Shown here: piece by piece, positions 526-59,703 of the stretch
Layout of the letters: each line of letters starts with the position of its first letter
Position numbering within the stretch: position 1 is the first letter of the stretch
Assembly: GCA_035271645.1 (NCBI GenBank)
Contig: DATERJ010000012.1
Location: forward strand, 93,551-157,550
Length of the DNA stretch: 64,000 bases
DNA from: Candidatus Dojkabacteria bacterium
GTDB lineage: Bacteria > Patescibacteriota > Dojkabacteria > SC72
Direction of reading: 5' to 3'
Translations under genes and position numbers: made by a program
Notes under the pieces: model-generated
What the model saw: the letters and a program-made list of their open reading frames with translations, nothing else
Told to the model about the DNA's origin: nothing
The model's database searches: none

Positions 526-1714
526 TCTTACTTGTCGAATATTTACTAATGTTTAATAGTATACCAATTCCCACTAGTGTAGTGACAGTACCAGAGCCAC
601 CATAGCTAAGAAGTGGTGCTGGTATTCCTGTGAGTGGTATGAGTCCTACATTGGCAGCCATATTAAGAAGTGCTTGTACTGTCAACCATGTTGATATACC
701 AATAGCGAGGAGTTTACCAGCTTTGTCTGGTGCACTATTAGCAATCTTTATCCCTCTTAAGAAGAACAAGACCCATGTAATTATTAAAATTACTCCACCC
801 AAGAATCCTAGCTCTTCTAAAATGACTGCGAAGATAGAGTCTGTGAATGCTGTACTTTCTACCAAATACCCAAATCTCTGTCTTGATTGCCCAAAACCTT
901 TACCAAAGAAGCCACCAGATCCAATTCCAATTAATATCTGATGTATTTGGTATCCTGCACCTCTAGGATCAGAAACCTCACCGTTTAGGAGAAGATGTAT
1001 GTATGTCTTGATTCTTTCTAATCTATACGGTGCTAATATTGCGGCAATTAAACCTAGTGGTGTGAAAAGAGCAAGAAGACTAAGTATTGAATATTTAGCA
1101 TGATCTTTGTGATTCTTTGCAACAAAGAACATGGCGAATGCAGTAAAGGCAATGATAGCTGTAGTTCCTAGGTCGGGTTCGAGTATGATTAAAACAGCTA
1201 CTAGTCCCAATATCACAAAAAAGCTAATTAGTACCTTCAAGAAATTACCTTTCAAATCTACTTTTACTTCATCTTTGAAGTATGAGGCTTTTGACATCCA
1301 ACTTGAGAAGTAGAGAACTATTGCGAGTTTTGCAAATTCTGCAGGTTGGAAGTTGCCAAATCCTGGTAATGTAAACCACCTTTTTGCACCATTGATATCT
1401 TCTCCTAGAGCAAGGACTAAAACTAACAAGATAATGACAACAATTAATATAGGTAATGAGAGTTTAAGAAGTTTTCTGTAATCCCAGAAGTACATAAGTG
1501 TTGCTAAAAGTCCTCCGATGATTAACCACCCTATCTGTGATTTTAGGAAGTAAAACGGGTCTCCGAAGATTTCATTTGCTTTAAACACACTTGCATCAAA
1601 AATCATGATGGCTCCAAATATTGCCATTATGATAAAGAAAGTGAGTATTACCTTGTCAGGTGAATACTTTTGTTTAATTCTTTTCTTCTTGGGTTGTTTT
1701 GGGTCTCTCGACAT
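515..1714 (-). CDS. ftsW: SEDS-family peptidoglycan glycosyltransferase FtsW/RodA
   Basis: 399-aa polytopic membrane protein with SEDS-like motifs (…PDLGT…, …GYQIHQ…, C-terminal …SYGGSGT…). It sits immediately upstream of murG. Confidence 0.85.
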   Translation of the reverse strand: MSRDPKQPKKKRIKQKYSPDKVILTFFIIMAIFGAIMIFDASVFKANEIFGDPFYFLKSQIGWLIIGGLLATLMYFWDYRKLLKLSLPILIVVIILLVLVLALGEDINGAKRWFTLPGFGNFQPAEFAKLAIVLYFSSWMSKASYFKDEVKVDLKGNFLKVLISFFVILGLVAVLIILEPDLGTTAIIAFTAFAMFFVAKNHKDHAKYSILSLLALFTPLGLIAAILAPYRLERIKTYIHLLLNGEVSDPRGAGYQIHQILIGIGSGGFFGKGFGQSRQRFGYLVESTAFTDSIFAVILEELGFLGGVILIITWVLFFLRGIKIANSAPDKAGKLLAIGISTWLTVQALLNMAANVGLIPLTGIPAPLLSYGGSGTVTTLVGIGILLNISKYSTSKNAE

Positions 1715-1744: not shown

Positions 1745-2344
1745 ATGAATATGAAGAATCTACTTTTTGTTGTAGGTGGTCCCGGTAGTAGTGGTTCATC
1801 TACAATTGCTAAAATGTTAGCTGAGTATTTTAATGTAGAAAGGGTGTATTCGGGGGCTGTTTTTAGAGAGGTTGTTGCATCTCAGGGGTATAAAACTTTG
1901 GATGACTTCTACATTGCAAACAAGGATAACAAAGAGAAGTTTTTTGAGATTGATAGGAAGGTCGACTCTTTTATGTTAGAGAGAGCAAAGGAAGGTAATG
2001 CTTTGATGGATTCAAAGGCTTTTGCAGGTTTGGCCACGATAAATGGGATTTCTTGTACTGCAAAGATATGGTTGGAAGCAAATATTGATACTAGGATAAA
2101 GAGGTTTTTGGGTAAGCAAGAGAATTTAACACCACTTAAAAAAGTATTTCTCTACATTAAGACATTTTTTGATTTGACTAGGAGGAGAAAAGCAGATGGT
2201 AAGAGGTTCAAGGAGTTGTATGGGATAGAATATGGTAATCCAGAGTTGTATAATGATATTGTGTTGGATACTAGTGATATTGGTGTGAAAGAAACATTTG
2301 ATTTAATTTTATCTAAGCTTAAAGATGGAGAATACATCAGTTGA
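1745..2344 (+). CDS. Putative cytidylate kinase, archaeal type (P-loop nucleotide kinase)
   Basis: MNMKNLLFVVGGPGSSGSSTIAKMLA… has a G-rich P-loop without Lys, as in archaeal-type CMP kinases, and a VYSGAVFRE motif. The ATG at 1745 is preferred over the track start at 1670, which overlaps ftsW. Confidence 0.45.
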   Translation: MNMKNLLFVVGGPGSSGSSTIAKMLAEYFNVERVYSGAVFREVVASQGYKTLDDFYIANKDNKEKFFEIDRKVDSFMLERAKEGNALMDSKAFAGLATINGISCTAKIWLEANIDTRIKRFLGKQENLTPLKKVFLYIKTFFDLTRRRKADGKRFKELYGIEYGNPELYNDIVLDTSDIGVKETFDLILSKLKDGEYIS

Positions 2345-2552
2345 AAATATACAAACCCCACCTATTCCACCAAGTGGTGTGCCAATTGAATTTTCTAAAG
2401 AGAATCCAAATCCTGTTAATGAAGATTTAGATAGTATGTGGTTGAGATGGAAGTGTTTGGTTTGTGGTTATGTTCATGAGGGTGCTATACCACTTAAGGT
2501 TTGTCCAAAGTGTGGGAATAGTAATCCTGATAAGTTTGATGATGCTGAATAA
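2325..2552 (+). CDS. Small rubredoxin-like zinc-ribbon protein
   Basis: C-terminal WKCLVCGYVHEG…CPKCG gives a CxxC…CxxC knuckle typical of rubredoxin-like domains. Confidence 0.5.
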   Translation: MENTSVENIQTPPIPPSGVPIEFSKENPNPVNEDLDSMWLRWKCLVCGYVHEGAIPLKVCPKCGNSNPDKFDDAE

Positions 2553-2559
2553 TTGTTAG

Positions 2560-2935
2560 GTTTGTAGTTTTTAGGGAATATGAGGAGAGAGAGAATGCAG
2601 GGGGTGTTGTTACATAGCAAGGCGGTTGTAAACCGGCAGGCAGCTTGCACAAACCCACTTTTTACCGCAAACCTCTCTCCTTTTTGTTCTAAAATTATAT
2701 GTATATAATTTTAGATAGGACCATCTCGGATTCTGTTTCCGTTCATTGTACCTCCATACAATGTTTTTGTTTCTCCACAAACGTGTTTGTGAAGTTGATT
2801 TACAAGGAGAGCAGCCGAGCAGGCATGAAGCCTGATGTCGTGTACGCGGTGCTTCCCTGTTGTTAACTTTTCAGATCTAGTCAGAATCGAGATGACTAGT
2901 TCTTTTTTTAAGAGCTAGGATTTTATTATCCTACA
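2560..2935 (-). ncRNA. Candidate ~380-nt non-coding transcript B driven by a consensus sigma70 promoter (identity unknown)
   Basis: No ORF of 60 aa or more; it lies between convergent genes. The perfect TTGACA-N17-TATAAT promoter at 2939-2967 (minus strand) points into it. It contains a GGAGAGAGAG…CCUCUCUCC long-range pairing and an SRP-helix-8-like stretch. Confidence 0.25.
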
Positions 2936-2938
2936 TAC

Positions 2939-2979
2939 ATTATATAATATTCTTTGAGAAATGTCAATACTATGGGTTG
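2939..2979 (-). promoter_or_regulatory. Consensus sigma70 promoter (TTGACA-17-TATAAT) with upstream CCAACCCATAG motif
   Basis: Minus-strand reading is CCAACCCATAGTATTGACATTTCTCAAAGAATATTATATAATG. The -35 is plus 2962-2967, the -10 is plus 2939-2944, and the spacer is exactly 17 nt. Confidence 0.6.
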
Positions 2980-2994
2980 GGACTTGTAAAGTCC

Positions 2995-3370
2995 ACATTA
3001 CAACTGATTAATTTGGTTATAATAGAGAATACAAGTGATAATAAAGTTTTAGTTTTTAAGGAAATAAGGGTGAGAGGGGCGAGTGCAAACAAATGGGTTT
3101 GTTAACCACTAATGTGGCAACTCGTTGAAGTCCCCTCCCACCAAGCTCTTATTAAGAGTCGTTATCTGCCAATAAGCAGAATAAAATTCCGATTGCAAAG
3201 TAAAGACAGGAGTCACAAGCACCTAGATGATGCAGGACTTCAGTCTATGCCTCACTTAAAAAAATGTAAAGTGGGCACAAGAGCCACAAAACCAATATGG
3301 TTTGGGTCAAAGACGTCTCACGATGTCGGAAAAGTGACACTTTTTAAGAGCTAGGATATATTATCCTACA
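2995..3370 (-). ncRNA. Candidate ~380-nt non-coding transcript A driven by a second copy of the same consensus promoter (identity unknown)
   Basis: Same promoter module at 3374-3416 (minus strand). There is no credible ORF; the 80-aa plus-strand ORF at 3112-3354 lacks an RBS and context. The plus-strand complement holds a 76-nt tRNA-like stretch ending in CCACCA at 3141. Confidence 0.25.
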
Positions 3371-3373
3371 CAC

Positions 3374-3416
3374 ATTATATAATATTCTTTGAGAAATGTC
3401 AACACACTATGGGTTA
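3374..3416 (-). promoter_or_regulatory. Consensus sigma70 promoter (TTGACA-17-TATAAT), copy 2 of the ~90-bp repeat
   Basis: Minus-strand reading is CCTTAACCCATAGTGTGTTGACATTTCTCAAAGAATATTATATAATG. The -35 is plus 3397-3402 and the -10 is plus 3374-3379. Confidence 0.6.
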
Positions 3417-3420
3417 AGGC

Positions 3421-4254
3421 TTACAGTCTAGATCCTTTATACTTAAACAACACGGATGGTCTATGTCCCCCTCCTGTTTTCATATTCTTTGTTTTTGTGA
3501 CTTTATTTTTAATAATTCTTCTAAAGGCAGCATCTAATAACTTCTTACCTAATATCACTTCATAGACTTGTTGTAATTCCCCTAGTGTAAATAACTCAGG
3601 CATCATATTAAAAACAATATCAGTATACTCTATCTTGTTTTTTAATCTTTCAATTCCAAGAGCAATTATAGAAGCGTGATCAAAAGCAAGATACTTGTTT
3701 TCGACAGCATCATACTGATACTTCTCTGTGGTATGTTGGATTAAACGTTTTTCTACAGTAAAGCTAATCTGTTCCTTATCACTTTTTAATTTAATATCAA
3801 TATATTGTCCTCTTTCCTTTATTGTAATATCAAACCAAGCAGCATTAGAAGGCAATTTGTCACTAAGTAGATTTTTATCTATTAATGACATATATGCAAC
3901 ACTTAAAACTCTCATTCTAGGGTCTCTATTAACCTCTCCCATTGTATATAACTGTTCTGTATATATATCATGGAGATTTGCTTCATCTGCCAACACTCTT
4001 TCTACAGCATCTTCTATTGTTTCTTTAACATCAATAAAGCCTCCAGGTAAACACCATTTATCCTTAAAGGGATGAGTATTTCTCTTAACTAGAAGAACGG
4101 AGAAATTCTTTTTGTTAAGCTTTCTATAGTTTGTTGTAGGTGTGTCTGAAACACTAAAAATCAGTATATCAACAGTAGCGGATAAGCGTTCATATTTGCT
4201 AGGATCATAGTGTTTTAGAAACTCCTTTTCTGATTTATATTGTTTTTCTTTCAT
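3421..4254 (-). CDS. nrtR: NrtR-family Nudix-related transcriptional regulator of NAD metabolism
   Basis: Nudix box GGFIDVKETIEDAVERVLADEANL plus a C-terminal winged-helix tail. It is the last gene of the nadD-nadE-pncA-pncB operon, the typical NrtR context. Confidence 0.7.
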   Translation of the reverse strand: MKEKQYKSEKEFLKHYDPSKYERLSATVDILIFSVSDTPTTNYRKLNKKNFSVLLVKRNTHPFKDKWCLPGGFIDVKETIEDAVERVLADEANLHDIYTEQLYTMGEVNRDPRMRVLSVAYMSLIDKNLLSDKLPSNAAWFDITIKERGQYIDIKLKSDKEQISFTVEKRLIQHTTEKYQYDAVENKYLAFDHASIIALGIERLKNKIEYTDIVFNMMPELFTLGELQQVYEVILGKKLLDAAFRRIIKNKVTKTKNMKTGGGHRPSVLFKYKGSRL

Positions 4255-4828
4255 AAAGCTGTTTCTCTCTAATATATTTTAGTATATTTTCATCTAAATG
4301 TCTTTTTAAAATCTTACTATCATCTTTTTTTAATAATTCTTTACGTATAATTGTTGAAGAAATGTTGTAGTTATAGTTGGGTGTTACTAAGGTAATCTTT
4401 TTTTCATACTCTTTCAATTCTTCTGGAAAGAAGAAAGGTTCTCTTTTGATGACAATGAGTGGGTAATTTTCTAATATATACCTATACTCTCTCCATGTTG
4501 TGAAATTTTCAAGGTTGTCACTACCACATATTAGATAGATATCATCAGAAGGATAAAGAGATTGAAAATGGTCTAAGGTTTGGTATGCATATACCAATTC
4601 TTTATTTTGCTCGAAGTTGGAAACAGAAATGTTTTCTTCATCTTCGGTCATAATCTGTAACATTTTATACCTATGTTTGTTAGGTACTAAATCATTTTTG
4701 TCGTACCTATCTCCAGTTGGGACAAAGATAACATTGTCAACGTAGCCTCCGTTTACAATGTTTTTCGCTATTTGATAGTGTGCCTTGTGTGGTGGATTAA
4801 AAGATCCTCCAAATATTCCAATTCTCAT
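4235..4828 (-). CDS. nadD: Nicotinate/nicotinamide mononucleotide adenylyltransferase
   Basis: MRIGIFGGSFNPPHKAHYQIA carries the (H/T)xGH nucleotidyltransferase motif and matches the NadD fold length. Confidence 0.8.
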   Translation of the reverse strand: MRIGIFGGSFNPPHKAHYQIAKNIVNGGYVDNVIFVPTGDRYDKNDLVPNKHRYKMLQIMTEDEENISVSNFEQNKELVYAYQTLDHFQSLYPSDDIYLICGSDNLENFTTWREYRYILENYPLIVIKREPFFFPEELKEYEKKITLVTPNYNYNISSTIIRKELLKKDDSKILKRHLDENILKYIREKQLYERKTI

Positions 4829-5587
4829 CTACCTTCTGTATGTTGGTATACTGAATTTATGTTGTGAGTTCTCATGCATTTTCTTAATCTTCTCTCTAGC
4901 ATCTTTTGACACCTTGTTAGGGTCTTCCATGTAATCAGCAACTTGGTTGTAGTTTATTCCTAACTTCTCTTCATCTGTTTTGCCGGAGAGGCCATCATCT
5001 GGGGTTTTGTAAAGGCAAGCCTTTGGTACCTTTAGATATTCTCCAATCTTAATGACTTCTTCTACTGTATAGTCTGCAATTGTTGCCATGTCACTTGCAC
5101 CATCACCCCATTTTGTAAAGTAGCCAATAAATATTTCGCACTTGTTTGATGTTCCAGCAACGATATGTTGTTTTCCTGTTTTTGCAGTCATATATGCTGC
5201 GATGTAGTAAAGGGTAGCCATTCTCATTCGTGGTTTTACATTGATATCTGCATTAAGCATATATTTTTCATCTTCCCCTACTACCTTTGTGACTTCTTTT
5301 TTAAATGTATCGTATGTTTCTGTAAGTTCAAAGGAGAGTAAATCTACACCATAGTAGTCGGCAACTTCTTGAGCATCTTTCATATCTTGAGATCTAGAAT
5401 GGCAAGGCATCCATACACCAACAACATTCTCCTTGCCAAGTGCTTTAACAAGAAGTCCTAGTACTATTCCACTATCCTTTCCTCCGCTAACTCCAATGAC
5501 TACTCCACCAAGATTATATTTTTTGAAGTGATTTCTGATGAACCGTACTATGTTTTTAGTTTCCTTCTCTGCATCAAACTCTTTCAT
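4829..5587 (-). CDS. nadE: NH3-dependent NAD+ synthetase
   Basis: VVIGVSGGKDSGIV carries the SGGxDS PP-loop; 252 aa. Confidence 0.85.
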   Translation of the reverse strand: MKEFDAEKETKNIVRFIRNHFKKYNLGGVVIGVSGGKDSGIVLGLLVKALGKENVVGVWMPCHSRSQDMKDAQEVADYYGVDLLSFELTETYDTFKKEVTKVVGEDEKYMLNADINVKPRMRMATLYYIAAYMTAKTGKQHIVAGTSNKCEIFIGYFTKWGDGASDMATIADYTVEEVIKIGEYLKVPKACLYKTPDDGLSGKTDEEKLGINYNQVADYMEDPNKVSKDAREKIKKMHENSQHKFSIPTYRR

Positions 5588-5615
5588 TTCATTCTTTTGT
5601 TAATTTAATAAGTTA

Positions 5616-6266
5616 TTAACTAAGAGGGTATGACTCTTCCCATTCGTTGTCAATATCTGTTTCTTGCTTATACTCCGGAACGACTATTACTCCTGCTCCC
5701 TTCATCCATTCTAATGCTTCATGGCTTCTTTCCTCTCTGTTTTTACCATTTACCTCGCCACGGAATGTGTCAACAGCATTTTCTGGAACAATGAGTTTTG
5801 TTTCACTTTTCCTCTCATCTAAATAGTCTTGAAGTGATAATGCTAGGTGTAAAACACAGATATCTGTGCAACAACCGACAATTACAATTTCATCTAGATT
5901 ACTTTCTATTTTTTGTAATTCTTTGCAAAATTCATCACTTTCCATAGCGTTTGTTGAGTCTTTTTTACATATAGTTGCTTCTCCACGCTCTACATATCCC
6001 TTTAACGCATCAATAGGTTCTGCTTCTTCAGTCTTATCGAGACAATGGACAGGATAATTTTTAAACTCTTCGCTATTCTCATTATGTGCATCATTAGCGT
6101 AGATAACACGACCCCCTGCTGTTAAGAATTTGTCTATGAGCTGAGTGATTGCAGGTACTATTTGACCAATATTTGGGTCTGCAAGTGCACCTTTTTCGAC
6201 AAAACCCTTATTCATATCTACTACAACTAGTAGTTTTCGATATTGGTTTAAATCTTTGTTTTTCAT
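5616..6266 (-). CDS. pncA: Nicotinamidase, isochorismatase family
   Basis: Catalytic D (VVVDMNKGF), K (ICKKDSTNA) and C (VGCCTDICV) triad in isochorismatase-like spacing. Confidence 0.75.
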   Translation of the reverse strand: MKNKDLNQYRKLLVVVDMNKGFVEKGALADPNIGQIVPAITQLIDKFLTAGGRVIYANDAHNENSEEFKNYPVHCLDKTEEAEPIDALKGYVERGEATICKKDSTNAMESDEFCKELQKIESNLDEIVIVGCCTDICVLHLALSLQDYLDERKSETKLIVPENAVDTFRGEVNGKNREERSHEALEWMKGAGVIVVPEYKQETDIDNEWEESYPLS

Positions 6267-6441
6267 TTAATGTGAATAATAATTTATTTTGATATTAACA
6301 TTATGACAAAAACAGGGCTTTTTGTCAAGGGGTTGTCTATATTTATGAAAAAAGCACCACTTGAGGTTGGTTTAAGATATTAGAATGTACATTGTTGTAC
6401 ATATATCTTACCTCTTGTGGTGCTTTTCCGTTCCTTATTGT

Positions 6442-7887
6442 TTAGCAGTATTGAACGCCTCTTTGTTCAAAGATCATTCGATTCCTCATATCTGCCAGTT
6501 TGACAGAAAGGTCAACGTAGTAGCCATGCGGATTGTCTAAACGTATGACTTCTGGATAGAGAGTTTGAAATTCTCTTGAACAATAATCCTGGCTCTCTTC
6601 GAGTGATGGGACATTGTAAACTAACTCTCCCTTTTGGAAAATTGGAACTTGAAGTTCTTTCAATATATAATTCGACAGATCTTTGTATTTCCAAGGATGA
6701 TTATGGTCTACTAACCTATACTGGTCGGTAGGAATTACCTCATCTGCTAAGGCAACTAAGTCGCCAAGAGCAAAGCGAGTATCCTTATCGTAGAAACGAT
6801 ATACCTTCTTAAACCCTGGTGTGGTAGTCTTTGTATTGTCTTCGCTCACTTTGATTGTAGGAATGATTAAACGGCCCTTTTTTATTGCAGCAAGCTTGTA
6901 GACACCTCCAAAAACGGGGGTTCTTTTTGAAGTGATGAGGTTTTCACCAACTCCAAAGGAATCGATGGGTGCTCCCTGTGCAAGCAGACTTTGGATAGTG
7001 TACTCATCCAAGGAATTGGATGCTACAATTTTGCAGTCTTGTAATCCTGCCTCATCAAGCATTTTTCTTGCTTGCTTGGCAAGGTAGGCTAAGTCCCCAC
7101 TATCCAAACGAATACCCTTCAATCTTTGACCTAGAGGTTCAAGATATTCCTTTGCTACTCTTATAGCATTAGGTACTCCACTTCTTAGTGTGTCGTATGT
7201 ATCTACGAGTAGCACAGTATTGTGTGGAAACTCTCTTGCATATGCAATGAAAGCTTCATATTCAGTATCAAATTGGGTTACGAGACTATGTGCCATAGTT
7301 CCAAGTAGTGGAACATTGTACTCTAACCCTGTTCCATAGCACGATGTGCCAGCGCACCCTGCCATGTAAGCATATTTCGCGCCGTTGATAGCTGCTGTTA
7401 GTCCTTGTGCTCTTCGAGCTCCGAACTCCATTACTGATCTTCCTGCTGCGGCATGGACAATTCTTTTTGCCTTGGTAGCAATCATTGACCCATGATTGAA
7501 GCGATTCAATATGTCTGTCTCAATGATTTTTGCTTCAATTGCTGGAGCCCATACTGTTATTACAGGCTCGTTTGGGAAAATGGGTGTACCATCTGGAATG
7601 GCATACACATCTCCAGTAAACTTGAATGTTCTTAAATATTCTAAGAACTCTTTTTTCAAGTCACTATTCTTGCTCAGGTAGTCTATTTCTTCCTTAGAGA
7701 ATGACAGGTTCTGAATGTAATCGATGATTTCATTTAAACCTGCACTTATAGAGTACCCCTTCTGTTCTGCTCCTTCTCGTCTATCGTTTCTGAAATAGAC
7801 ATCAAAGCATTGCCATAGGTTTTTGAAGCCGTGAAAGTAATCAACCTGAGCCATTGTTAGCTCATAAAAATCTACAACTTTTTTCAT
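6442..7887 (-). CDS. pncB: Nicotinate phosphoribosyltransferase
   Basis: 481 aa. N-terminal YELTMAQ… and central motifs are typical of class I NAPRTases. It completes the pncA/pncB/nadD/nadE salvage set. Confidence 0.8.
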   Translation of the reverse strand: MKKVVDFYELTMAQVDYFHGFKNLWQCFDVYFRNDRREGAEQKGYSISAGLNEIIDYIQNLSFSKEEIDYLSKNSDLKKEFLEYLRTFKFTGDVYAIPDGTPIFPNEPVITVWAPAIEAKIIETDILNRFNHGSMIATKAKRIVHAAAGRSVMEFGARRAQGLTAAINGAKYAYMAGCAGTSCYGTGLEYNVPLLGTMAHSLVTQFDTEYEAFIAYAREFPHNTVLLVDTYDTLRSGVPNAIRVAKEYLEPLGQRLKGIRLDSGDLAYLAKQARKMLDEAGLQDCKIVASNSLDEYTIQSLLAQGAPIDSFGVGENLITSKRTPVFGGVYKLAAIKKGRLIIPTIKVSEDNTKTTTPGFKKVYRFYDKDTRFALGDLVALADEVIPTDQYRLVDHNHPWKYKDLSNYILKELQVPIFQKGELVYNVPSLEESQDYCSREFQTLYPEVIRLDNPHGYYVDLSVKLADMRNRMIFEQRGVQYC

Positions 7888-8017: not shown

Positions 8018-8590
8018 CTATAGGGTTTGTGCTTCTAGATATTTTAATGCCTTTTTTAAAATAACTTCCCTGTTTTTCGATGTGTCAAAAAATTTTATAT
8101 TTAAATCTTTACACTCTTTTTCTAAAACTTTGCTGAACTTAATGTTCGAAACCACAATCTTTCTTAGCTTATCTTTACTTAAACCATAGGACCAGGAACA
8201 TTTGGGGTCATGTTTTTGAATTAATTCTATCTTCTTCTCTGTGGTTATATTGGGATAACCAAGGAATATTACTATAGTGTCTTTATTGTTTAGATTTGCA
8301 ACATCTCGAGGGTATAATGTCGGAATATCAAATATGTAAAAATGTTTGTTGATATTAGAGTTGTTTGACCCTGTGATGCTGTTCATAAGCTTTACCAATT
8401 TAGGGCTTGCCTGAGGCCATCTTTTCCCACTAGTTTTGACGAAGTTATTAAATATCCCTCTTTTTATACTATCCATAGGTATGTAATTGTAGTAGGATTT
8501 CTTTTTTCGTATCATGGAAGCTAAGGTGGTTTTACCAGACCTACTAGTTCCTGCAATTATGATATGTTTTTTCTTTTTAGCTTTATTCAT
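8018..8590 (-). CDS. P-loop NTPase/kinase (AAA_18/nucleoside-nucleotide kinase-like), translationally coupled to radical SAM 1
   Basis: Walker A HIIIAGTSRSGKTTLA; 190 aa. Its start overlaps the stop of the upstream radical SAM gene by 8 nt. Confidence 0.6.
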   Translation of the reverse strand: MNKAKKKKHIIIAGTSRSGKTTLASMIRKKKSYYNYIPMDSIKRGIFNNFVKTSGKRWPQASPKLVKLMNSITGSNNSNINKHFYIFDIPTLYPRDVANLNNKDTIVIFLGYPNITTEKKIELIQKHDPKCSWSYGLSKDKLRKIVVSNIKFSKVLEKECKDLNIKFFDTSKNREVILKKALKYLEAQTL

Positions 8591-9608
8591 ACTTCATTAA
8601 AATATCTTCATTATCTACCCAGCTACCATTAAGATTCCCATTTGGATGGAAAACCATTTCATAGACTTTATCTTTATGTTTAGCTTTCTCTGCGTATAGC
8701 TTTTTAAGGTCTGCAGATTCGGAGCATACAACTACATTATTATATTGGTATATCTCTACATAGTAGTAATACCCTAAAATATTTTTGATAGGTACAAATT
8801 TGGGGTTTTTATCAATTTCTTTCCAGATGTCATTCAGTACTACTTTGTTTTCTTTGCAATATTTCATTTTTTCGATATTTGACATAGATTTTTCATCATA
8901 ATCCATCAGTTCTCTGAAGATGACATTATCAATTCCAAGCTTTTCATAGAATTGAATGTAGTTCTCTATGTCTTGCATTGTACTGATACCACTTTTTAGC
9001 AAGAGACAACTTAGTCTTGGTCTTAACTTTCTTTCCAAAGCATATGGTATTATTTGTGCTAAATCTTCATTAGAGCAATACCCTTCTCTATATCTCATTA
9101 TTTTCGTGTTTATATTGTCATCATAATGTGTTTTACTAATATTCAAATGATCAAAGTTATATTTGATTAGTAGATCGAGGATACTTTTACCATTGATTTT
9201 GTGTAATAGGTAGCTTCCATTTGTGGTTATGGTTCTTTTTCTCATATTATGTTTCTCTAAGAGTTCTAGAATACCTGGTAACTTAGGTGATGCAGTTGGT
9301 TCTCCACCAGTTAATGAAACACTTAAATTAAGGGGTTCTAACTTTGTTAGCACTTCATCTAACCTTTTGTAGTATTCATTAGTATTCTTAATTGTTTCTT
9401 TTTTGTAGATTTTAGCCACATTCTCATATCGTAGTTGTGCTACACAGAATTTACAGTCCGCATTACAGAAATCATCAACAAATATTGATAGATTACAATT
9501 CCCGTAGACCTTTTTCTTCAACCCATCAAAGTCAAAATCTATAAGCTCCTTTTGATTTATGTCAAAATTTGCTTGACGTGTATATCTTAGTTTTTCAAAT
9601 TCAGACAT
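8583..9608 (-). CDS. Radical SAM enzyme 1 (MoaA/viperin-like core, no SPASM/twitch Cys cluster)
   Basis: CNADCKFC (CxxxCxxC), then LTGGEPT (SAM glycine-rich motif) and TTNGSYLL. 341 aa; paralogous to 9619..10602. Confidence 0.75.
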   Translation of the reverse strand: MSEFEKLRYTRQANFDINQKELIDFDFDGLKKKVYGNCNLSIFVDDFCNADCKFCVAQLRYENVAKIYKKETIKNTNEYYKRLDEVLTKLEPLNLSVSLTGGEPTASPKLPGILELLEKHNMRKRTITTNGSYLLHKINGKSILDLLIKYNFDHLNISKTHYDDNINTKIMRYREGYCSNEDLAQIIPYALERKLRPRLSCLLLKSGISTMQDIENYIQFYEKLGIDNVIFRELMDYDEKSMSNIEKMKYCKENKVVLNDIWKEIDKNPKFVPIKNILGYYYYVEIYQYNNVVVCSESADLKKLYAEKAKHKDKVYEMVFHPNGNLNGSWVDNEDILMKYE

Positions 9609-9618
9609 GTTTTTATAT

Positions 9619-10602
9619 TTAATAATTTAATAAAACCTTACTTCTGTTATTCCAATCTGTATCCATCAAACGTCCGTCTGCATAGAAAACAAAATCTCTT
9701 ATAATGTCATTGTCGTAATCTTTTTCTGTATAGCACTTAACAATAGAATCTTCATAAGCAAATACTTGTACAGAGTAATAAAGTCCCTCCATATCTCTAA
9801 TATGTTTAAATTTTTGATTTTTTCTTAATTCCTTAACTATTTCTGATATGTCAACAAATTTATTCATGTAATTGTCATAATTAGGTGCAGATTTCTTAAT
9901 GTTGACTAGCTCCCTAAAGAGTGTAGTTTCAACTCCAAGGTTTTTATAGAAATCTCTATAATCTAGTATTTCTTTTAAGTTTGTTACTCCTCCTTTTTGT
10001 AGAGTACATCCCATTCGAACTCCCATTCCGTTTGTGTTACAAAATGTTGCAATCCTTTGTACATCTTCATTAGAGATGGCATATGGAGTCATCATAAGTT
10101 TTGAATTTACTCTTTGGTCTGAATGCATGCGACTAATATTTATATTCTGAACTACATTGTTTTCTAACATATGTTGTAATATTGGCTTGTTGTCAACTAA
10201 ATCTAGCAAGCCACTACCATTGGTTGAGAAACTTTTATATCTGTATCCATATCTTTTAATAAGTTGTAAGGTTGGTACTAATTTTGAACTTTTTGTAGGT
10301 TCTCCACCAGTTATAGCTATTGCTGGGTTTAAATCTTTTAGTTGGTTTAATACATAATCTAGTCTTTCAATATATTCTTTATCACTATTAATCTCTTTGG
10401 AGTAGAGATAATTATCCTCGTACTTATTCATACAGAAAGGACAATTAGCATTACATTTGTTAGTTATATATATTGTCAGAGAAGCATTCCCGTATACTCT
10501 GTATTTCTTTTTATTAAAAATCTTCTCTTTGATGTCATAAACCTCTATATTGTGTGTTTCAGTTCTTTCATTACTTGCTGGTGTAAATTTTATTGTATTC
10601 AT
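9619..10602 (-). CDS. Radical SAM enzyme 2 (paralogue of enzyme 1)
   Basis: CNANCPFC, then ITGGEPT and STNGSGLL. 327 aa. The C-terminal tail (…FYADGRLMDTDWNN) is similar to enzyme 1 (…FHPNGNLNGSWVDN). Confidence 0.75.
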   Translation of the reverse strand: MNTIKFTPASNERTETHNIEVYDIKEKIFNKKKYRVYGNASLTIYITNKCNANCPFCMNKYEDNYLYSKEINSDKEYIERLDYVLNQLKDLNPAIAITGGEPTKSSKLVPTLQLIKRYGYRYKSFSTNGSGLLDLVDNKPILQHMLENNVVQNINISRMHSDQRVNSKLMMTPYAISNEDVQRIATFCNTNGMGVRMGCTLQKGGVTNLKEILDYRDFYKNLGVETTLFRELVNIKKSAPNYDNYMNKFVDISEIVKELRKNQKFKHIRDMEGLYYSVQVFAYEDSIVKCYTEKDYDNDIIRDFVFYADGRLMDTDWNNRSKVLLNY

Positions 10603-11273
10603 TATTTTAACCCCCTTTCATAATTGCTTCTTGCTATTAAATCTTGCTTAAAGTTTTTACCATCGCAGGAGTAAATATACCAATCATCAACATTCTGGAC
10701 AATTACAGGCAAATCATATTCACTTTCGTTTTCATATTTTCCATATCGTTGTAGATAGTAAAGATTTGATATCTTCTCTAAATCTTTTTCTTTTATTAAT
10801 TTTTTTAACCAATCATCTTTTTTTCTCAATCTTACATTTAAAATAATGTTGAAGTCTTTTATGAATTCAGTAGAGAGGTGTAAATCTTTAGCCTCATCTA
10901 TACAATTCTTATTCATGTTATATAACCAATAGTTGATACTAATTTTTATAAGAACAGGTGTTTTGTACCATTTGTGAAGTTCAACTAATCTATGTATATG
11001 TCTTTTAAGTAATATGCCATTTGTTACTATGATTATTTTCTTACATCTATTTGTACTTTGAGCGTATTCTATAAATAGATATAAGTCTTTGTGTAGGAGT
11101 GGTTCTCCGCCTTCGAGTTGAAGTTCGAAGTCATCATCATATGAGTCTATAATTTCTTTAAATTTATCAAATGAGATGAAAGTGGTTTTTGATGATTCGG
11201 ACCACATGCAGCAAAATTCGCAATCCGCATTACACTTGTTGGTTAGATTAATATATATTCTTATTAGTTTCAT
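10602..11273 (-). CDS. Radical SAM enzyme 3 (short, QueE/NrdG-activase-like size)
   Basis: CNADCEFCC, then LEGGEPLL. 223 aa. Its stop overlaps the start of enzyme 2 (ATGA). Confidence 0.7.
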   Translation of the reverse strand: MKLIRIYINLTNKCNADCEFCCMWSESSKTTFISFDKFKEIIDSYDDDFELQLEGGEPLLHKDLYLFIEYAQSTNRCKKIIIVTNGILLKRHIHRLVELHKWYKTPVLIKISINYWLYNMNKNCIDEAKDLHLSTEFIKDFNIILNVRLRKKDDWLKKLIKEKDLEKISNLYYLQRYGKYENESEYDLPVIVQNVDDWYIYSCDGKNFKQDLIARSNYERGLK

Positions 11274-11312
11274 TGTGTTGTTTTAATACAGATATATGTT
11301 ATTTACATTTTG

Positions 11313-11341
11313 ATAATATCACACCTAGGGGTATCTGTCAA
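11313..11341 (-). promoter_or_regulatory. Near-consensus sigma70 promoter (TTGACA-17-TATTAT) for the rSAM3-rSAM2-rSAM1-kinase operon
   Basis: Minus-strand reading is CACTTGACAGATACCCCTAGGTGTGATATTATC. The -35 is plus 11336-11341 and the -10 is plus 11313-11318, about 35 nt upstream of the ATG at 11273. Confidence 0.5.
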
Positions 11342-11396
11342 GTGTGTGAAAATGATTACTAATCTAAGCATGTTATCTAAATTTAAACATTATGGA

Positions 11397-12077
11397 TTAT
11401 ATCTCTATCTGAGAGTTAAAATCCCATGTAGAATATAGATTACCATCTGTTCTGTATACCAGATATCTGTTTGTACTATCCATACATGATTCATCAACCC
11501 ACACATTATATTTCTCTCTTAATGTTTGAGCTTCTGTAGTTGAAAAAGTCTGTCTATGTTCTTCTATATATGCATCTACCTTAGGGTGATGGTTTGATGT
11601 TTTTTGTAAGTATTTAACTGTTATCTGTTTATCATCCCCTGCTCTTTCTCTTAACCTTACGATATCGGTATATGATAATTGATCTGTTAGGATAACTGTA
11701 TATCTAGTAATTCCAAAATCAGCAACTGGAAGCTTAGTTGGAATTTTATTCATAGAATATGCTACTACATCTATTTCAGGAAGACCTTTGAAGTTCTGAT
11801 TAGCTGTTTGTATTTCTACTTTACACTCTTTATGTTTAGAAAGTATTTTTAAGGAGTTGGTTATAAAATCAGGAAAGAGTGTTGGTTCTGTCATTCCTGT
11901 AATGACAACGGTAGATATATTGTGATTGGTTATGACATTGTCTAATCTTTTTAAATATAACTCTGTATTATTATTGTAGAAATCATCGTTATATGGATTC
12001 TCTCCCTCAAAAGCTGATACACAATATGGACAACCATATGGACACTTAATATATGGACTGGTTAGTTGTAGGTTCAT
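11397..12077 (-). CDS. Radical SAM enzyme 4 (divergent; CPYGCPYC cluster)
   Basis: The N-terminal CPYGCPYC fits CxxxCxxC. ITGMTEPTLF replaces the GGEP motif. 226 aa. Confidence 0.6.
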   Translation of the reverse strand: MNLQLTSPYIKCPYGCPYCVSAFEGENPYNDDFYNNNTELYLKRLDNVITNHNISTVVITGMTEPTLFPDFITNSLKILSKHKECKVEIQTANQNFKGLPEIDVVAYSMNKIPTKLPVADFGITRYTVILTDQLSYTDIVRLRERAGDDKQITVKYLQKTSNHHPKVDAYIEEHRQTFSTTEAQTLREKYNVWVDESCMDSTNRYLVYRTDGNLYSTWDFNSQIEI

Positions 12078-40707: not shown

Positions 40708-40869
40708 TTAAACCTCTTCTTTCTTTTTTTATAGTTTCCTATTCTCAATATTCAACTTTTAAAGTGCTATATTAAAATCATAAAGCGATTAAATATTTAG
40801 CGACCAAGCTCGTATCTAATCAGATTTCAACATCATATTATATCACAAAAGTGGACAGAACACAGCACA

Positions 40870-50284: not shown

Positions 50285-50585
50285 ATCCGAATGGATAGCT
50301 TATTAACTATTAGATTAGTAATAAGTAATAGGCTACCCACTCAAGATTAAAAAAGAGAGAACCCCAATAAACTATTAAAGTGCAAGTATTTATATTATAT
50401 CATAAAATGAAGAGAAATGCTATGGGTTGTGAGTTGGTTGACATAATTATGAACTTAGAACTGTAAGAGATTTTTTATCTTGAAAATGTGCTTAAGGAAA
50501 GAATGTTGTTTTATAAAGAAGAAAAGCCTGAAGGTTTATGAGATAGATGGATAGTATACACTACACGGGAATCCCTACTTCAGGC
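50285..50585. repeat. ~300-bp promoter/leader/3'-hairpin module, copy A
   Basis: Shares with copy B ATCCGAATGGATAGC…GCTACCCACTC (a hairpin-forming leader), TTAAAGTGCAAGT, the ATTATATCATAAAA -10, CTATGGGTTG and a near-identical 165-nt tail ending in the AGCCTGAAG…CTTCAGGCT stem. Confidence 0.8.
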
Positions 50586-52106: not shown

Positions 52107-52184
52107 TGGGGTGGAAGATGGGACTTGAACCCACAACCTCTGGTGCCACAAACCAGCGCTCTAACCAGTTGAGCTACATCCACC
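52107..52184 (-). tRNA. tRNA-His (anticodon GTG), G-1 and CCA encoded
   Basis: Reverse complement G-GTGGATGTAGCTCAACTGGTTAGAGCGCTGGTTTGTGGCACCAGAGGTTGTGGGTTCAAGTCCCATCTTCCACC-C-CCA. The extra 5' G pairs with C73, as is typical of tRNA-His. Confidence 0.85.
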
Positions 52185-52310
52185 ATATTCGTATATATTA
52201 TTATACTACATAATCTGTCCCTTAGCTATTGGTACTTGTGATTTTATCTCTTGAGTGTTATGATTATCTGCTATTTGATTTCCAAATATTTTAATTAGCT
52301 ATTTAATACA

Positions 52311-55123: not shown

Positions 55124-56908
55124 CTATTTAACTGTAACAGATTTTGCTAAGTTCCTAGGTTTATCTATATTATTCCCTAATACAAGCGAGAGATAGTATG
55201 AGATCAATTGAAAAGGTATTACATTAGCAATACTTGAGATATTCTCTATCTGTGGAACAACAATATATCTATCAAACACCTCATTCTTCTGGAAATCTTT
55301 TGAACCTACCCCTATGGTAAGAGCTCCCCTACTTTTAACCTGTTCCATTGCACTAATTAGGTCACTACTTTCATTATGTTTTTTCTCTGGCATTATTCCA
55401 AACACTACTGTCCCCTTCTCTATCAGCGCTATGACACCGTGCTTTAACTCACCAGCAGCGAAGCCTTCTACATGTTTGTAAGATATCTCTTTAATCTTTA
55501 GAGCACCTTCTAGGGCAATACAGGAGTTCTCACCTTTACCTAAGATAAAGGCATGGTCTTTCTTTTTCATTAAGTTACCAACAGATTTAGTTTGTGCAAG
55601 AGCTTCTTTTGTGAATAGTTTACTTAACTGTCTTGTAAGCTTTTTGATATTCATTTGAGCTTCTTTGTATTGCTTAACTAAGACCATTGCAAGTAAGTAT
55701 CCCCATGCACATTGAGCAGTAAAGACCTTTGTCGAAGCAACACATATCTCTGGACCCGAGTTAGTGTAGTATTCATAGTCTGACATTCGACTAATTGTTG
55801 TACCAAACATATTAACAATACTGGCTACTTTACATCCTTTCTTCTTCAAGGCATCTATGGCTTCAATTGTATCAGCTGTTTCCCCACTTTGAGAGAATGC
55901 AATTACAACATCTCTCTTCTTAATTATCGGTAAGTATGAATTATATTCATAGCTCTTTATCTCTTGAGCATCTATCTTTGCAATATTTCTTAAGAAATAT
56001 GCAACTTGTCCTGCAGCAAAACCAGCTGTTCCTGCTCCTACTGTATATACCCTTTTAGCTTTCTTAATTGCTTGTGTAAGGGGTTTTAAGTCCTTCTCAG
56101 TATATTCTGTTGCTAAAGGTATTGTTTTCTTTTGATCTACAATTTCTTTGATCATAAAATGCTTGAATTTACCTTTGTCTATTTCACTAAATTGGTGCTT
56201 TAATTCTTTTACCACTATATTCTTCTTCCCTTTTTTCATTAAGTTTTTAATCTTAATATCTGTTCCGTCTATCTCAACCATATCGTAGTCATCTAAGAGA
56301 ATAACCTTGTTTGTTGCTGTTGAGAAAGAGAGGGTGTCAGATGCTAAATATGTACCATCTTCAGCTACACCTAATACTAAAGGTGAACCATTCCTAACTG
56401 CATATATCTTTCCACTCTTACTATCTAAAACAGCAATGGTATTTCTTCCTTCTAGTCTCTTAAAAACAGTTACAATTGCATCTTTTAATGTTTTTTTCTT
56501 AACTAATTCTTGTTCAATTAGTTTTACTATTACCTCTGTATCTGTTTGGGATACAAACTTTTCTTTCTTTTTTAGTAATTCTTTTTTTAATGAATCAAAA
56601 TTCTCAACAATACCATTCTGAACAAGTGTAAATTCATTGTGAGATGAGAGATGAGGATGAGCATTTTTTACAGTAACACCACCATGTGTAGCCCATCTAG
56701 TGTGACCTATACCTACAATTCCATCTTGAAGTTTTGTTAACTTATCATCTTTTTTAATCTCTCCGATATTCTTGTATTGATATATCTTGTTTTCATTAAG
56801 TATTGCTATCCCCCACGAATCATATCCTCTATATTCCAACCTCTTTAATCCATTAAATATCGCTTCTTTAGTTTTCTTCTCTCCTGAATATCCAAAAATA
56901 CCGCACAT
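55124..56908 (-). CDS. glmS: Glutamine--fructose-6-phosphate aminotransferase
   Basis: MCGIFGY N-terminal nucleophile and two SIS domains; 594 aa. Confidence 0.9.
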   Translation of the reverse strand: MCGIFGYSGEKKTKEAIFNGLKRLEYRGYDSWGIAILNENKIYQYKNIGEIKKDDKLTKLQDGIVGIGHTRWATHGGVTVKNAHPHLSSHNEFTLVQNGIVENFDSLKKELLKKKEKFVSQTDTEVIVKLIEQELVKKKTLKDAIVTVFKRLEGRNTIAVLDSKSGKIYAVRNGSPLVLGVAEDGTYLASDTLSFSTATNKVILLDDYDMVEIDGTDIKIKNLMKKGKKNIVVKELKHQFSEIDKGKFKHFMIKEIVDQKKTIPLATEYTEKDLKPLTQAIKKAKRVYTVGAGTAGFAAGQVAYFLRNIAKIDAQEIKSYEYNSYLPIIKKRDVVIAFSQSGETADTIEAIDALKKKGCKVASIVNMFGTTISRMSDYEYYTNSGPEICVASTKVFTAQCAWGYLLAMVLVKQYKEAQMNIKKLTRQLSKLFTKEALAQTKSVGNLMKKKDHAFILGKGENSCIALEGALKIKEISYKHVEGFAAGELKHGVIALIEKGTVVFGIMPEKKHNESSDLISAMEQVKSRGALTIGVGSKDFQKNEVFDRYIVVPQIENISSIANVIPFQLISYYLSLVLGNNIDKPRNLAKSVTVK

Positions 56909-57163
56909 ATTTGTGTAGCTTTAATTTATCTAAAAGGGAATTGTTGATTACCTCTTTGTTGAATTGTAGGTAATCTTTAGGTCAACAATATGACCTGAGA
57001 GTATCCGCTGATTATCCGACTGCTCTCTCCTCGTAGTAGTTCCTAGCTACCCATACGCTATTTATGTTAAATATCCCTTGGGTATATATTACAGGATTAA
57101 AGTTTTAGGTCAAGTTTGCTATATATCCTTTGTCATATTAATATCAATATTGTATATTTAAAT

Positions 57164-59580: not shown

Positions 59581-59703
59581 CTTTTTTCTCCTTTTTTATA
59601 TATTTTTTGTGATTACTTCTAACCAATAGATTGTTAAAGTGCGACAAGGTATTATAACAATCTGAACGGGACAAAACAAGGCTATGGGATTGGTTGTGTG
59701 GGA

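Follow-up and report, generated by a model that had tools for sequence, protein, structure and literature searches.

Between two convergent genes of a Candidatus Dojkabacteria bacterium (contig DATERJ010000012.1) lies a gap of 867 bp, at 2553-3420 of a 64,000-nucleotide stretch that is referred to here as the window. The gap may hold two tandem copies of a small, strongly promoted transcription unit, and it is these that are considered below. The gene on one side is rubredoxin-like. The gene on the other is nrtR, the last of the NAD-salvage operon pncB, pncA, nadE, nadD, nrtR.

2325-2552, plus strand: rubredoxin-like gene, 75 residues, Pfam RUBY_RBDX
3421-4254, minus strand: nrtR, a 277-residue Nudix-type regulator

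An earlier reading of this DNA (the sequence-only reading) had described a gene-free gap with two consensus promoters aimed into it, a pair of direct repeats and non-coding transcripts, with a long-range stem, a stretch resembling signal recognition particle (SRP) RNA and a tRNA-like fold. Much of this has held up. The gap, the promoters, the repeats and the strong folding are all confirmed, the long-range stem (GGAGAGAGAG/CCTCTCTCC, 2581-2680) is real, and the strings that were quoted are present (at ~2806-2857 and 3068-3142). The SRP-like and tRNA-like identity, however, did not survive (see below). As for conventional genes, the gap contains only mechanical open reading frames (ORFs) of 80 residues or fewer, and nine of these were compared with Pfam without a match.

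The promoters are two exact copies of TTGACA-N17-TATAAT on the minus strand (3402..3374 and 2967..2939), identical to each other over all 29 nucleotides. No other site in the window matches at 12 of 12 positions. Allowing one mismatch adds three further sites, and 100 shuffles gave no perfect match at all.

3374..3413, minus strand: promoter A, with CCCATAG at 3413..3407, -35 TTGACA at 3402..3397, a 17-nt spacer and -10 TATAAT at 3379..3374
2939..2976, minus strand: promoter B, with CCCATAG at 2976..2970, -35 TTGACA at 2967..2962 and -10 TATAAT at 2944..2939

Promoter A begins 8 nt past the nrtR stop codon. Both promoters lie inside direct repeats of ~85 bp (2905-2985 and 3341-3422), which align in segments of 47 nt (96% identity), 17 nt (100%) and 17 nt (82%). 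Could the repeat be a product of assembly? Many independent metagenome contigs with an identical nrtR end exactly 48 nt past that gene, inside the repeat. This is how an assembler behaves at a true repeat, and the ~85-bp repeat is therefore regarded as genuine. The data sets in which the organism has been assembled include SRR13001971, ERR14232083, ERZ27250651 and JGI 3300010351.

The heptamer CCCATAG had also been counted as part of the repeats, but it is not specific to them. There are 10 minus-strand copies in the window and none on the plus strand (CTATGGG on the plus strand at 2970, 3407, 24157, 24577, 40870, 42091, 49400, 50420, 52097 and 59682). Most copies read (A)ACCCATAG(C/T), are intergenic and precede a (TGA)TATAAT box by 20-31 nt. 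One lies directly 3' of tRNA-His, and in relatives the homologous promoter also has the heptamer upstream of it. Its role in this lineage may be that of a promoter-upstream element, a transcript-end element or the binding site of a regulator. The leaders of three promoters associated with CCCATAG (50340-50400, 59620-59660 and ~40740-40770, all minus strand) share a GCACTTTAA(Y)A(R)T(Y)TATTGG-like sequence before ordinary protein genes. This GCACTTTAA-type sequence may be a shared leader or operator motif.

Each promoter in the gap heads a minus-strand unit of ~320-380 nt that is predicted to comprise a conserved leader, a closed multi-branch body and a long hairpin with a tail. The transcription start sites used here are those inferred from the -10 positions. 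Units A and B have the leader GUAGGAUAAUA(U/A)AAUCCUAGCUCUUAAAAA in common, and leader plus promoter are ~90% identical between the copies. The bodies are barely alignable.

3050..3367, minus strand: predicted transcript of unit A, ~320 nt, with a leader hairpin AGGAUAAUAUAUCCU (3367..3353) and a multi-branch body
3352..3345 with 3151..3144, minus strand: long-range closing helix of unit A, AGCUCUUA / UAAGAGCU
3069..3142, minus strand: 3' hairpin of unit A, in which an 11-bp stem, GGUGGGAGGGG/CCCCUCUCACC, closes two inner hairpins; its tail, CUUAUUUCCUUAAAAACUA, runs to 3050
2565..2932, minus strand: predicted transcript of unit B, ~370 nt, with the same leader as unit A and a body of three hairpins
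2894..2882 with 2735..2722, minus strand: predicted body-closing helix of unit B, 13 bp
2581..2680, minus strand: 3' hairpin of unit B, closed by GGAGAGAGG/CUCUCUCUCC; its tail, UCAUAUUCCCUAAAAACUA, runs to 2565
2879..2911, plus strand: terminator-like hairpin, CTAGTCA-N9-TGACTAG followed by TTCTTTTTTT (a scan reports an overlapping site at 2896-2918)

The predicted transcripts fold well beyond shuffled sequence, with z = -7.3 for the whole of unit B and -5.4 for the whole of unit A. This is not simply the contribution of their terminator hairpins, as the bodies folded without them still give z = -5.4 and -5.3. Which strand is the RNA? The 11-bp closing stem of the unit A 3' hairpin contains a G-U pair that is valid on the minus strand only and would be a mismatch on the plus strand. 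Likewise, in a hairpin of related genomes, G-U substitutions (L108 compared with L091) are compatible only with the strand of nrtR. Together these observations indicate that the RNA strand is the nrtR (minus) strand.

The 3' hairpins of the two units have the tail UUCCYUAAAAACUA in common, and their closing stems are GA-rich on one side and CU-rich on the other. On the plus strand, TTTTTGTTCT comes directly after the unit B hairpin. The equivalent hairpin of the relatives stands directly 3' of the stop codon of the convergent gene and has ATTTTTTCAAGG after it on that strand. For these reasons the 3' hairpins are read as two-way terminators, and the one in unit B also has the appearance of a terminator for the convergent rubredoxin-like/cmk operon. 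A pairing of GGAGAGAG with CCUCUCUCC (also of GGAGAGAGAG with CCUCUCUCC) that the sequence-only reading had picked out is present, but it is the closing stem of this two-way-terminator-like hairpin. The plus-strand hairpin at 2879..2911 would halt read-through from the convergent operon ahead of promoter B. On the minus strand the same sequence is an alternative fold to the unit B body-closing helix.

The clearest view of the element comes from related Dojkabacteria, in which the region 3' of nrtR forms a series when arranged by identity of the NrtR protein to that of the window.

NrtR 72% (L096, L097): 5 bp past nrtR, then the rubredoxin-like gene; no unit
NrtR 71% (L099-L101): 14 bp past nrtR, then a PedC-like gene, then the rubredoxin-like gene; no unit
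NrtR 81-83% (L091-L095, L103-L106, L108, L189): a gap of 500-555 bp with one unit, then the PedC-like and rubredoxin-like genes
NrtR 100% (the window): 867 bp with two units; no PedC-like gene or remnant of one (tblastn)

In the 81-83% relatives the PedC-like gene lies between the RNA unit and the rubredoxin-like gene, and in the window the second unit occupies that place. The next gene 3' of the unit is convergent in the window and in all of the relatives. One further locus (L187, 1886-2416) carries nrtR DNA that is 96% identical to that of the window up to 26 nt before the stop codon (window 3447), where the two diverge. Its NrtR has 284 residues and is followed by a tRNA-His-like gene 85% identical to the tRNA-His of the window (52107-52206). 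This is either a real rearrangement at the locus or a chimeric assembly. The series and the divergence of L187 together suggest that the element is young, restricted to a lineage and situated at a labile site.

The PedC-like gene encodes a membrane-anchored thioredoxin-like protein (CPWC) and is found at 7378-7992 in L091, 6373-6996 in L095 and 4843-5493 in L099. A decayed protein gene was considered as an explanation for the gap and rejected, given that the nine gap ORFs are without a Pfam match and that tblastn with the relatives' PedC-like proteins detects no remnant.

The unit in the relatives is a single copy of ~400 nt at the same place 3' of nrtR. A nhmmer search with the gap against 98 loci recovered only strains more than 99% identical and did not link the relatives' gap to that of the window. 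What the units of the two groups share is an order of features. This begins with CCCATAGT, a promoter TTG(T/C)AA-N17-TATAAT, an UCUUUAAAAGAA leader hairpin (UCUUAAAAAAAGAA in the window) and a body that a long-range helix closes (AAGGAAUAUC with GAUAUUCCUU). It continues with a micro-ORF (ORF3, see below), a perfect hairpin of AT-rich sequence and an A-rich linker, and ends with a long hairpin closed by GAGAGAGGG/CCCUCUCUC (GAGAGG/CCUCUC) and the UUCCYU tail.

The body of the relatives' unit contains three micro-ORFs of 8-11 codons, each led by a Shine-Dalgarno (SD) sequence.

ORF1, in the relatives: SD AAAGGAGG, start TTG; (M)NNSAFPVGFV or NNTVFPVGFV
ORF2, in the relatives: SD GAAAGGA, start ATG; MIRYPVGFT or MIKYPVGFT
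ORF3, in the relatives: SD UCGGAGG, start ATG; MHRIRNPT, MYRIRNPT or MNRIRNPPL

Six distinct sequences from the relatives were compared in a test for coding-type conservation. Of 93 columns within the micro-ORFs, 19 are variable, and 12 of these are at codon position 3 (binomial p = 0.007). None contains an indel. Between the ORFs there are 295 columns, of which 76 are variable and 91 contain indels. The difference in indel columns is highly significant (Fisher p = 3e-13), with the qualification that the columns cluster into fewer events than were counted. The comparison of L091 with L095, the most distant types, is also instructive. Their ORF1 and ORF2 differ at 11 nt, and 9 of the 11 are third positions (p = 0.001). 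Such a third-position bias is the signature of selection on the peptides. The sequence-only reading had named small proteins conserved at the amino-acid level as evidence against its own proposal, and the homologous gap of the sister genomes turns out to encode exactly that, in the form of tiny peptides.

The fold of the relatives' RNA also involves these frames. In the predicted consensus structure the F-P-V-G codons of ORF1 pair with the SD of ORF3, and the segment just 3' of the ORF1 stop codon pairs with the SD of ORF2. This suggests that translation of the ORFs may be coupled. A hairpin similar to the perfect AT-rich one of the window is found just 3' of both ORF2 and ORF3.

In the window, one micro-ORF can be recognized, and it lies in unit B.

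2711..2755, minus strand: micro-ORF with SD; GGAGG at 2755..2751, a 4-nt spacer, ATG..TAA at 2746..2711, MNGNRIRDGPI
2688..2715, minus strand: perfect 13-bp AT-rich hairpin, starting at the stop codon of the micro-ORF

This is the sole SD-led short ORF on the minus strand of the gap. Its position matches that of ORF3, directly 5' of the perfect hairpin (2715..2688), the A-rich linker and the terminator hairpin. With ORF3 it has N-R-I-R-[ND]-[GP]-P in common, and R-I-R is encoded by AGA AUC CGA where the relatives have AGG AUU AGA. Dinucleotide shuffles of the gap yielded a short, SD-led ORF that matched ORF3 at 5/7 positions or better in only 5 of 20,000 cases (p ~2.5e-4), and the motif RIR[NDE][PG][PT] occurs nowhere else in six frames of the 1.5 Mb of collected loci. 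The micro-ORF is accordingly regarded as homologous to the relatives' ORF3. In the minimum-energy fold its SD is in a hairpin loop, its AUG is in a stem of 7-8 bp and its codons 4-9 are in the 13-bp body-closing helix. In this model the frame looks locked.

The other parts of the ancestral coding content are missing. Micro-ORFs of the PVGF kind (the ORF1 and ORF2 type) are absent from the window, and unit A has no SD-led ORF. However, CAAUCGGAAUUUUAUUCUG in unit A resembles CAAUCGGAGACAAAAUGAAC, the SD and start region of ORF3 in L095, and it may be a decayed ORF3 start.

How might all of this be put together? The interpretation favored here, with a probability of about 0.5, is that the gap holds two tandem paralogous copies of an orphan, lineage-specific transcription unit, and that this unit is a dual-function RNA or micro-mRNA that was ancestrally tricistronic. 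Each copy would start at its consensus sigma-70-type promoter on the minus strand, be transcribed away from nrtR and end at the long hairpin with the GA-rich/CU-rich closing stem and the UUCCYU tail. The RNA would adopt a compact multi-helix fold that is closed end to end. The ancestral form would be a single-copy micro-mRNA or dual-function RNA of ~400 nt, with three SD-led ORFs under selection at the amino-acid level. In the lineage of the window the gene would have been duplicated, and the neighboring PedC-like gene is absent. Unit B would have kept the third micro-ORF alone, in a translationally locked fold. Unit A would have kept promoter, leader, fold and terminator but no ORF. In the window the element would be partly reduced to RNA only. 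It would most likely act as a translation-coupled riboregulator or as a producer of micropeptides. A ribosome that initiates or pauses on the micro-ORF would remodel the RNA. The proposal is prompted by the lock on the micro-ORF, the hairpin at its stop codon and the R-x-(G/P)-P end of the peptide.

A more far-reaching version is conceivable, although it is doubtful. It holds that there is a class of genes specific to bacteria of the candidate phyla radiation (CPR), consisting of stand-alone, highly structured RNAs that encode nothing but translationally coupled micro-ORFs of 8-11 codons. The ribosome would be the target of the encoded products or of the nascent chains. The peptides FPVGFV and YPVGFT, and an R-I-R-x-P/G-P peptide that resembles both the cores of RAPP/RAGP arrest peptides and the RRIRPRPP head of proline-rich peptides that bind the ribosome, would turn the RNA into a sensor or modulator of translation without a downstream gene.

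Several observations do not sit easily with the interpretation as a dual-function RNA or micro-mRNA. The buried start codon of the window's micro-ORF could equally mean that there is no translation. Unit A is without an SD-led ORF and the window has none of the PVGF ORFs, so coding alone cannot account for the function here. What similarity there is between window and relatives lies below the reach of nhmmer, and the link consists of ordered short features and one peptide. Only about six homologous sequences of about three types are available, all closely related. The folds have no covariation support: RNAalifold on five relatives gave a covariation term of +3.87, with 6 of 114 pairs compensated. 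This check, which the sequence-only reading had recommended, thus produced nothing convincing, but with so few sequences, all so much alike, it is not decisive. Finally, the U-tracts 3' of the minus-strand terminator hairpins are weak, and the promoters, transcript ends and translation are all predictions.

Some of the same observations would be expected if the units were purely non-coding regulatory RNAs that act by base-pairing or by binding protein (for example through CU-rich loops, or by pairing of the UUCCYU tail with SD regions), with the micro-ORF of unit B an untranslated relic. This is somewhat unlikely. Unit A has no ORF at all, yet its promoter is still perfect, its leader is retained and its fold is strong, and the predicted helices of unit B enclose the AUG and codons 4-9. 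In the relatives, the 3' half is 92% identical among the six sequences, and the interior of its hairpin, including an 18-nt pyrimidine-rich apical loop, is nearly invariant while the spacers between the ORFs decay. None of this explains, however, why changes in the relatives' ORFs favor third positions and never include an indel, or why the R-I-R-[ND] peptide has been kept through synonymous codon changes. Nor do the folds themselves show covariation, and a search for base-pairing targets within the window found no significant complementarity, the best being 13 nt to the ftsW mRNA at chance level (E = 0.68). A bleaker possibility is that the gap is evolutionary debris, a recently duplicated promoter-terminator cassette plus intergenic DNA that is decaying after rearrangement (loss of the PedC-like gene) at a labile locus, and that any transcripts are functionless. 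The element is indeed absent from the relatives with NrtR at 71-72%, and in the strain whose nrtR DNA is 96% identical the gene is followed by other sequence. The unit A and B bodies can barely be aligned, ORF1 and ORF2 have been lost and ORF3 has apparently decayed in unit A. But debris would hardly be expected to maintain two perfect 12/12 promoters, bodies that fold at z ~-5.3 even without terminators, and a leader and 3' tail conserved between the copies. The unit of the relatives is, moreover, under clear purifying selection. This explanation is accordingly considered improbable.

An explanation that is far less probable still is a module of the type I toxin-antitoxin kind, or a small mobile insertion whose ends would be the direct repeats. 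Presence and absence do differ among relatives, the terminators look two-way, and a micro-mRNA "locked" by long-range 5'-3' pairing is reminiscent of hok/fst-type toxin mRNAs. Type I systems consist of a hydrophobic membrane peptide toxin of ~20-60 residues and an overlapping antisense RNA. Here, the peptide has 11 residues, is hydrophilic and is without a membrane segment, and a promoter scan gave no promoter for an antisense RNA across the micro-ORF. As for mobility, there are no terminal inverted repeats, no transposase and no integrase, and no copies occur elsewhere in the window or in phage, plasmid and viral collections. A blastn search of phages and plasmids found no match to the gap element. 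One scan of viral contigs gave a single chance match within a phage coding region and another was empty. A mobile, phage or plasmid origin was rejected because none of these searches produced a real match.

That leaves the proposal with which the locus was first described, an abundant housekeeping structural RNA such as SRP RNA, RNase P RNA, transfer-messenger RNA (tmRNA) or 6S RNA, together with a tRNA-like element. It has in its favor the very strong promoters and the strong predicted structure, but it is now close to refuted. Positions 2300-3700 were scanned on both strands against 4227 Rfam families in E-value mode, to E = 10 and with lax filters. Only three chance-level matches were returned (MIR535, Bp1_738 and HOTAIR_2), and the lack of an Rfam match is another outcome that the sequence-only reading had listed against its own proposal. 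The models for SRP RNA (RF00169 and RF01854), RNase P, tmRNA, 6S and tRNA gave no match, and the same scan of a relative's homologous unit was empty. ARAGORN found four tRNAs elsewhere in the window but neither a tRNA nor a tmRNA in the gap, in agreement with the absence of matches there to RF00005 and RF00023. The string quoted as SRP-like is on the plus strand and hence antisense to the proposed transcript. The tRNA-like, CCA-ending fold (3069-3142) is the reverse complement of the unit A 3' hairpin, and the predicted fold of the segment is a stem that encloses two inner hairpins. Nor does the shape fit 6S, in that the predicted bodies are multi-branched closed domains rather than rods. The element is also missing from related Dojkabacteria (NrtR 71-72%) that have the same gene order. 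A young element confined to one lineage is not what a housekeeping RNA would be.

Other features of the window deserve brief mention. A cluster at 8018-12077 (minus strand), just upstream of the NAD-salvage operon, comprises four radical S-adenosylmethionine (SAM) genes (341, 327, 223 and 226 residues) and a 190-residue P-loop protein. All fall below every NCBIfam cut-off, with weak best matches to MoaA, viperin and HxsC-like proteins, and the cluster is also present in L096. The idea that the micro-ORFs might be precursors of ribosomally synthesized and post-translationally modified peptides (RiPPs) linked to the four radical SAM genes (8583-12077) was rejected, as the scores are far below the NCBIfam cut-offs and as gene calling finds no radical SAM gene in the ~6 kb upstream of nrtR in L091-type relatives, which do bear the RNA. 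The cluster is therefore not linked to the RNA element. The leader common to both units (AAUCCUAGCUCUU; 2910-2922 and 3346-3357) is perfectly complementary to the ftsW coding region (window 804-816) over 13 nt (12 nt for unit A), a match that on its own is at chance level. Elsewhere, a glmS ribozyme/riboswitch at 56936-57070 (minus strand; 45.6 bits against a gathering score of 37) lies directly upstream of a 594-residue ORF (55124-56908, minus strand).

The NAD-salvage module has a history of its own. Among species-representative genomes the best matches to NrtR are Bacilli-type loci (L011-L090, 80 loci) with 60-68% identity and no shared downstream gene order; a metagenome scan added 3 useful loci. 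For the region 3421-7887 (minus strand), these best matches come from metagenome-assembled genomes of gut Bacilli/Mollicutes-like organisms at 60-68%, and other Dojkabacteria reach only 71-83%. This hints that the NAD-salvage/nrtR module has been exchanged horizontally between CPR bacteria and Bacilli.

To our knowledge, the small RNAs and micropeptides of CPR bacteria are almost unexplored, and ORFs as short as 8-11 codons are never reported by gene callers. The locus described here offers a clean comparative case, with the site empty in some relatives, one copy in others and two in the window, and with tiny frames that show coding-type conservation while the surrounding RNA decays. If they are translated, they would be among the shortest conserved bacterial genes, in an RNA whose predicted fold looks built to gate translation. 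If they are not, the unit would still be a well-delimited, duplicated orphan small RNA (sRNA) gene, and an example of how neither a perfect promoter nor a strong fold is proof of a housekeeping RNA.

How does the unit compare with known systems? Ribosome arrest peptides of the RAPP/RAGP type include SecM, ApdA, ApdP and ApcA (PMC12992588, PMC10951233, PMC7897499). These motifs are reported to be enriched toward the C-terminal ends of very small proteins, and at the x position Asp or Ser is reported to be partly permissive whereas Asn is not reported (PMC12992588). The ends of the peptides described here, R-D-G-P-I* in the window and R-N-P-P-L* in L095, have the spacing of I-R-A-G-P and R-A-P-P and lie near the C-terminus of a very small product. 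In contrast, no co-directional gene lies downstream of them (the one that follows is convergent), they have neither a signal nor a transmembrane segment, a nascent chain long enough to fill the exit tunnel is missing, and most relatives have R-N-P-T. The likeness is a resemblance only.

Leader ORFs with +x+ stalling motifs (R/K-x-R/K), such as ErmDL and the msr/mef leaders, are another point of comparison. The similarities are an ORF of 8-11 codons, R-I-R near the N-terminus, a strong SD and a hairpin directly 3' of the ORF. However, there is no resistance gene or other gene downstream here, and the host is a CPR bacterium with no antibiotic link. The hairpins are also without U-tracts, which means that they are not attenuators. 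Very short genes do exist, the example being mccA, the 7-codon gene for the precursor of microcin C. Like mccA, the micro-ORFs have fewer than 12 codons, their own SD and structured RNA 3' of the ORF. Unlike it, they do not encode peptides that end in Asn, and no gene for an MccB-like adenylating enzyme or an exporter is found in the neighborhood.

The remaining comparison is with the dual-function sRNAs of Gram-positive bacteria. Examples are RNAIII of S. aureus, which encodes delta-hemolysin, and SR1 of B. subtilis, which encodes SR1P; their ORFs have 26-39 codons. The units in the gap are predicted to be RNAs of the same general build, being stand-alone, strongly promoted, structured and a few hundred nucleotides long, with an SD-led small ORF, their own terminator and no downstream gene. 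On sequence predictions, each unit has its own promoter and terminator without a downstream cistron. An SD-led small ORF under selection at the amino-acid level is found in unit B and in the relatives, but not in unit A. There are clear differences in that the ORFs here have 8-11 codons rather than 26-39 and number three in the ancestral form, that there is no relationship in sequence or in Rfam, and that one of the copies (unit A) is without an ORF. The unit matches no known family, and the nearest kind is the dual-function sRNA, here with ORFs that are several-fold shorter, with three of them ancestrally and in a CPR host.

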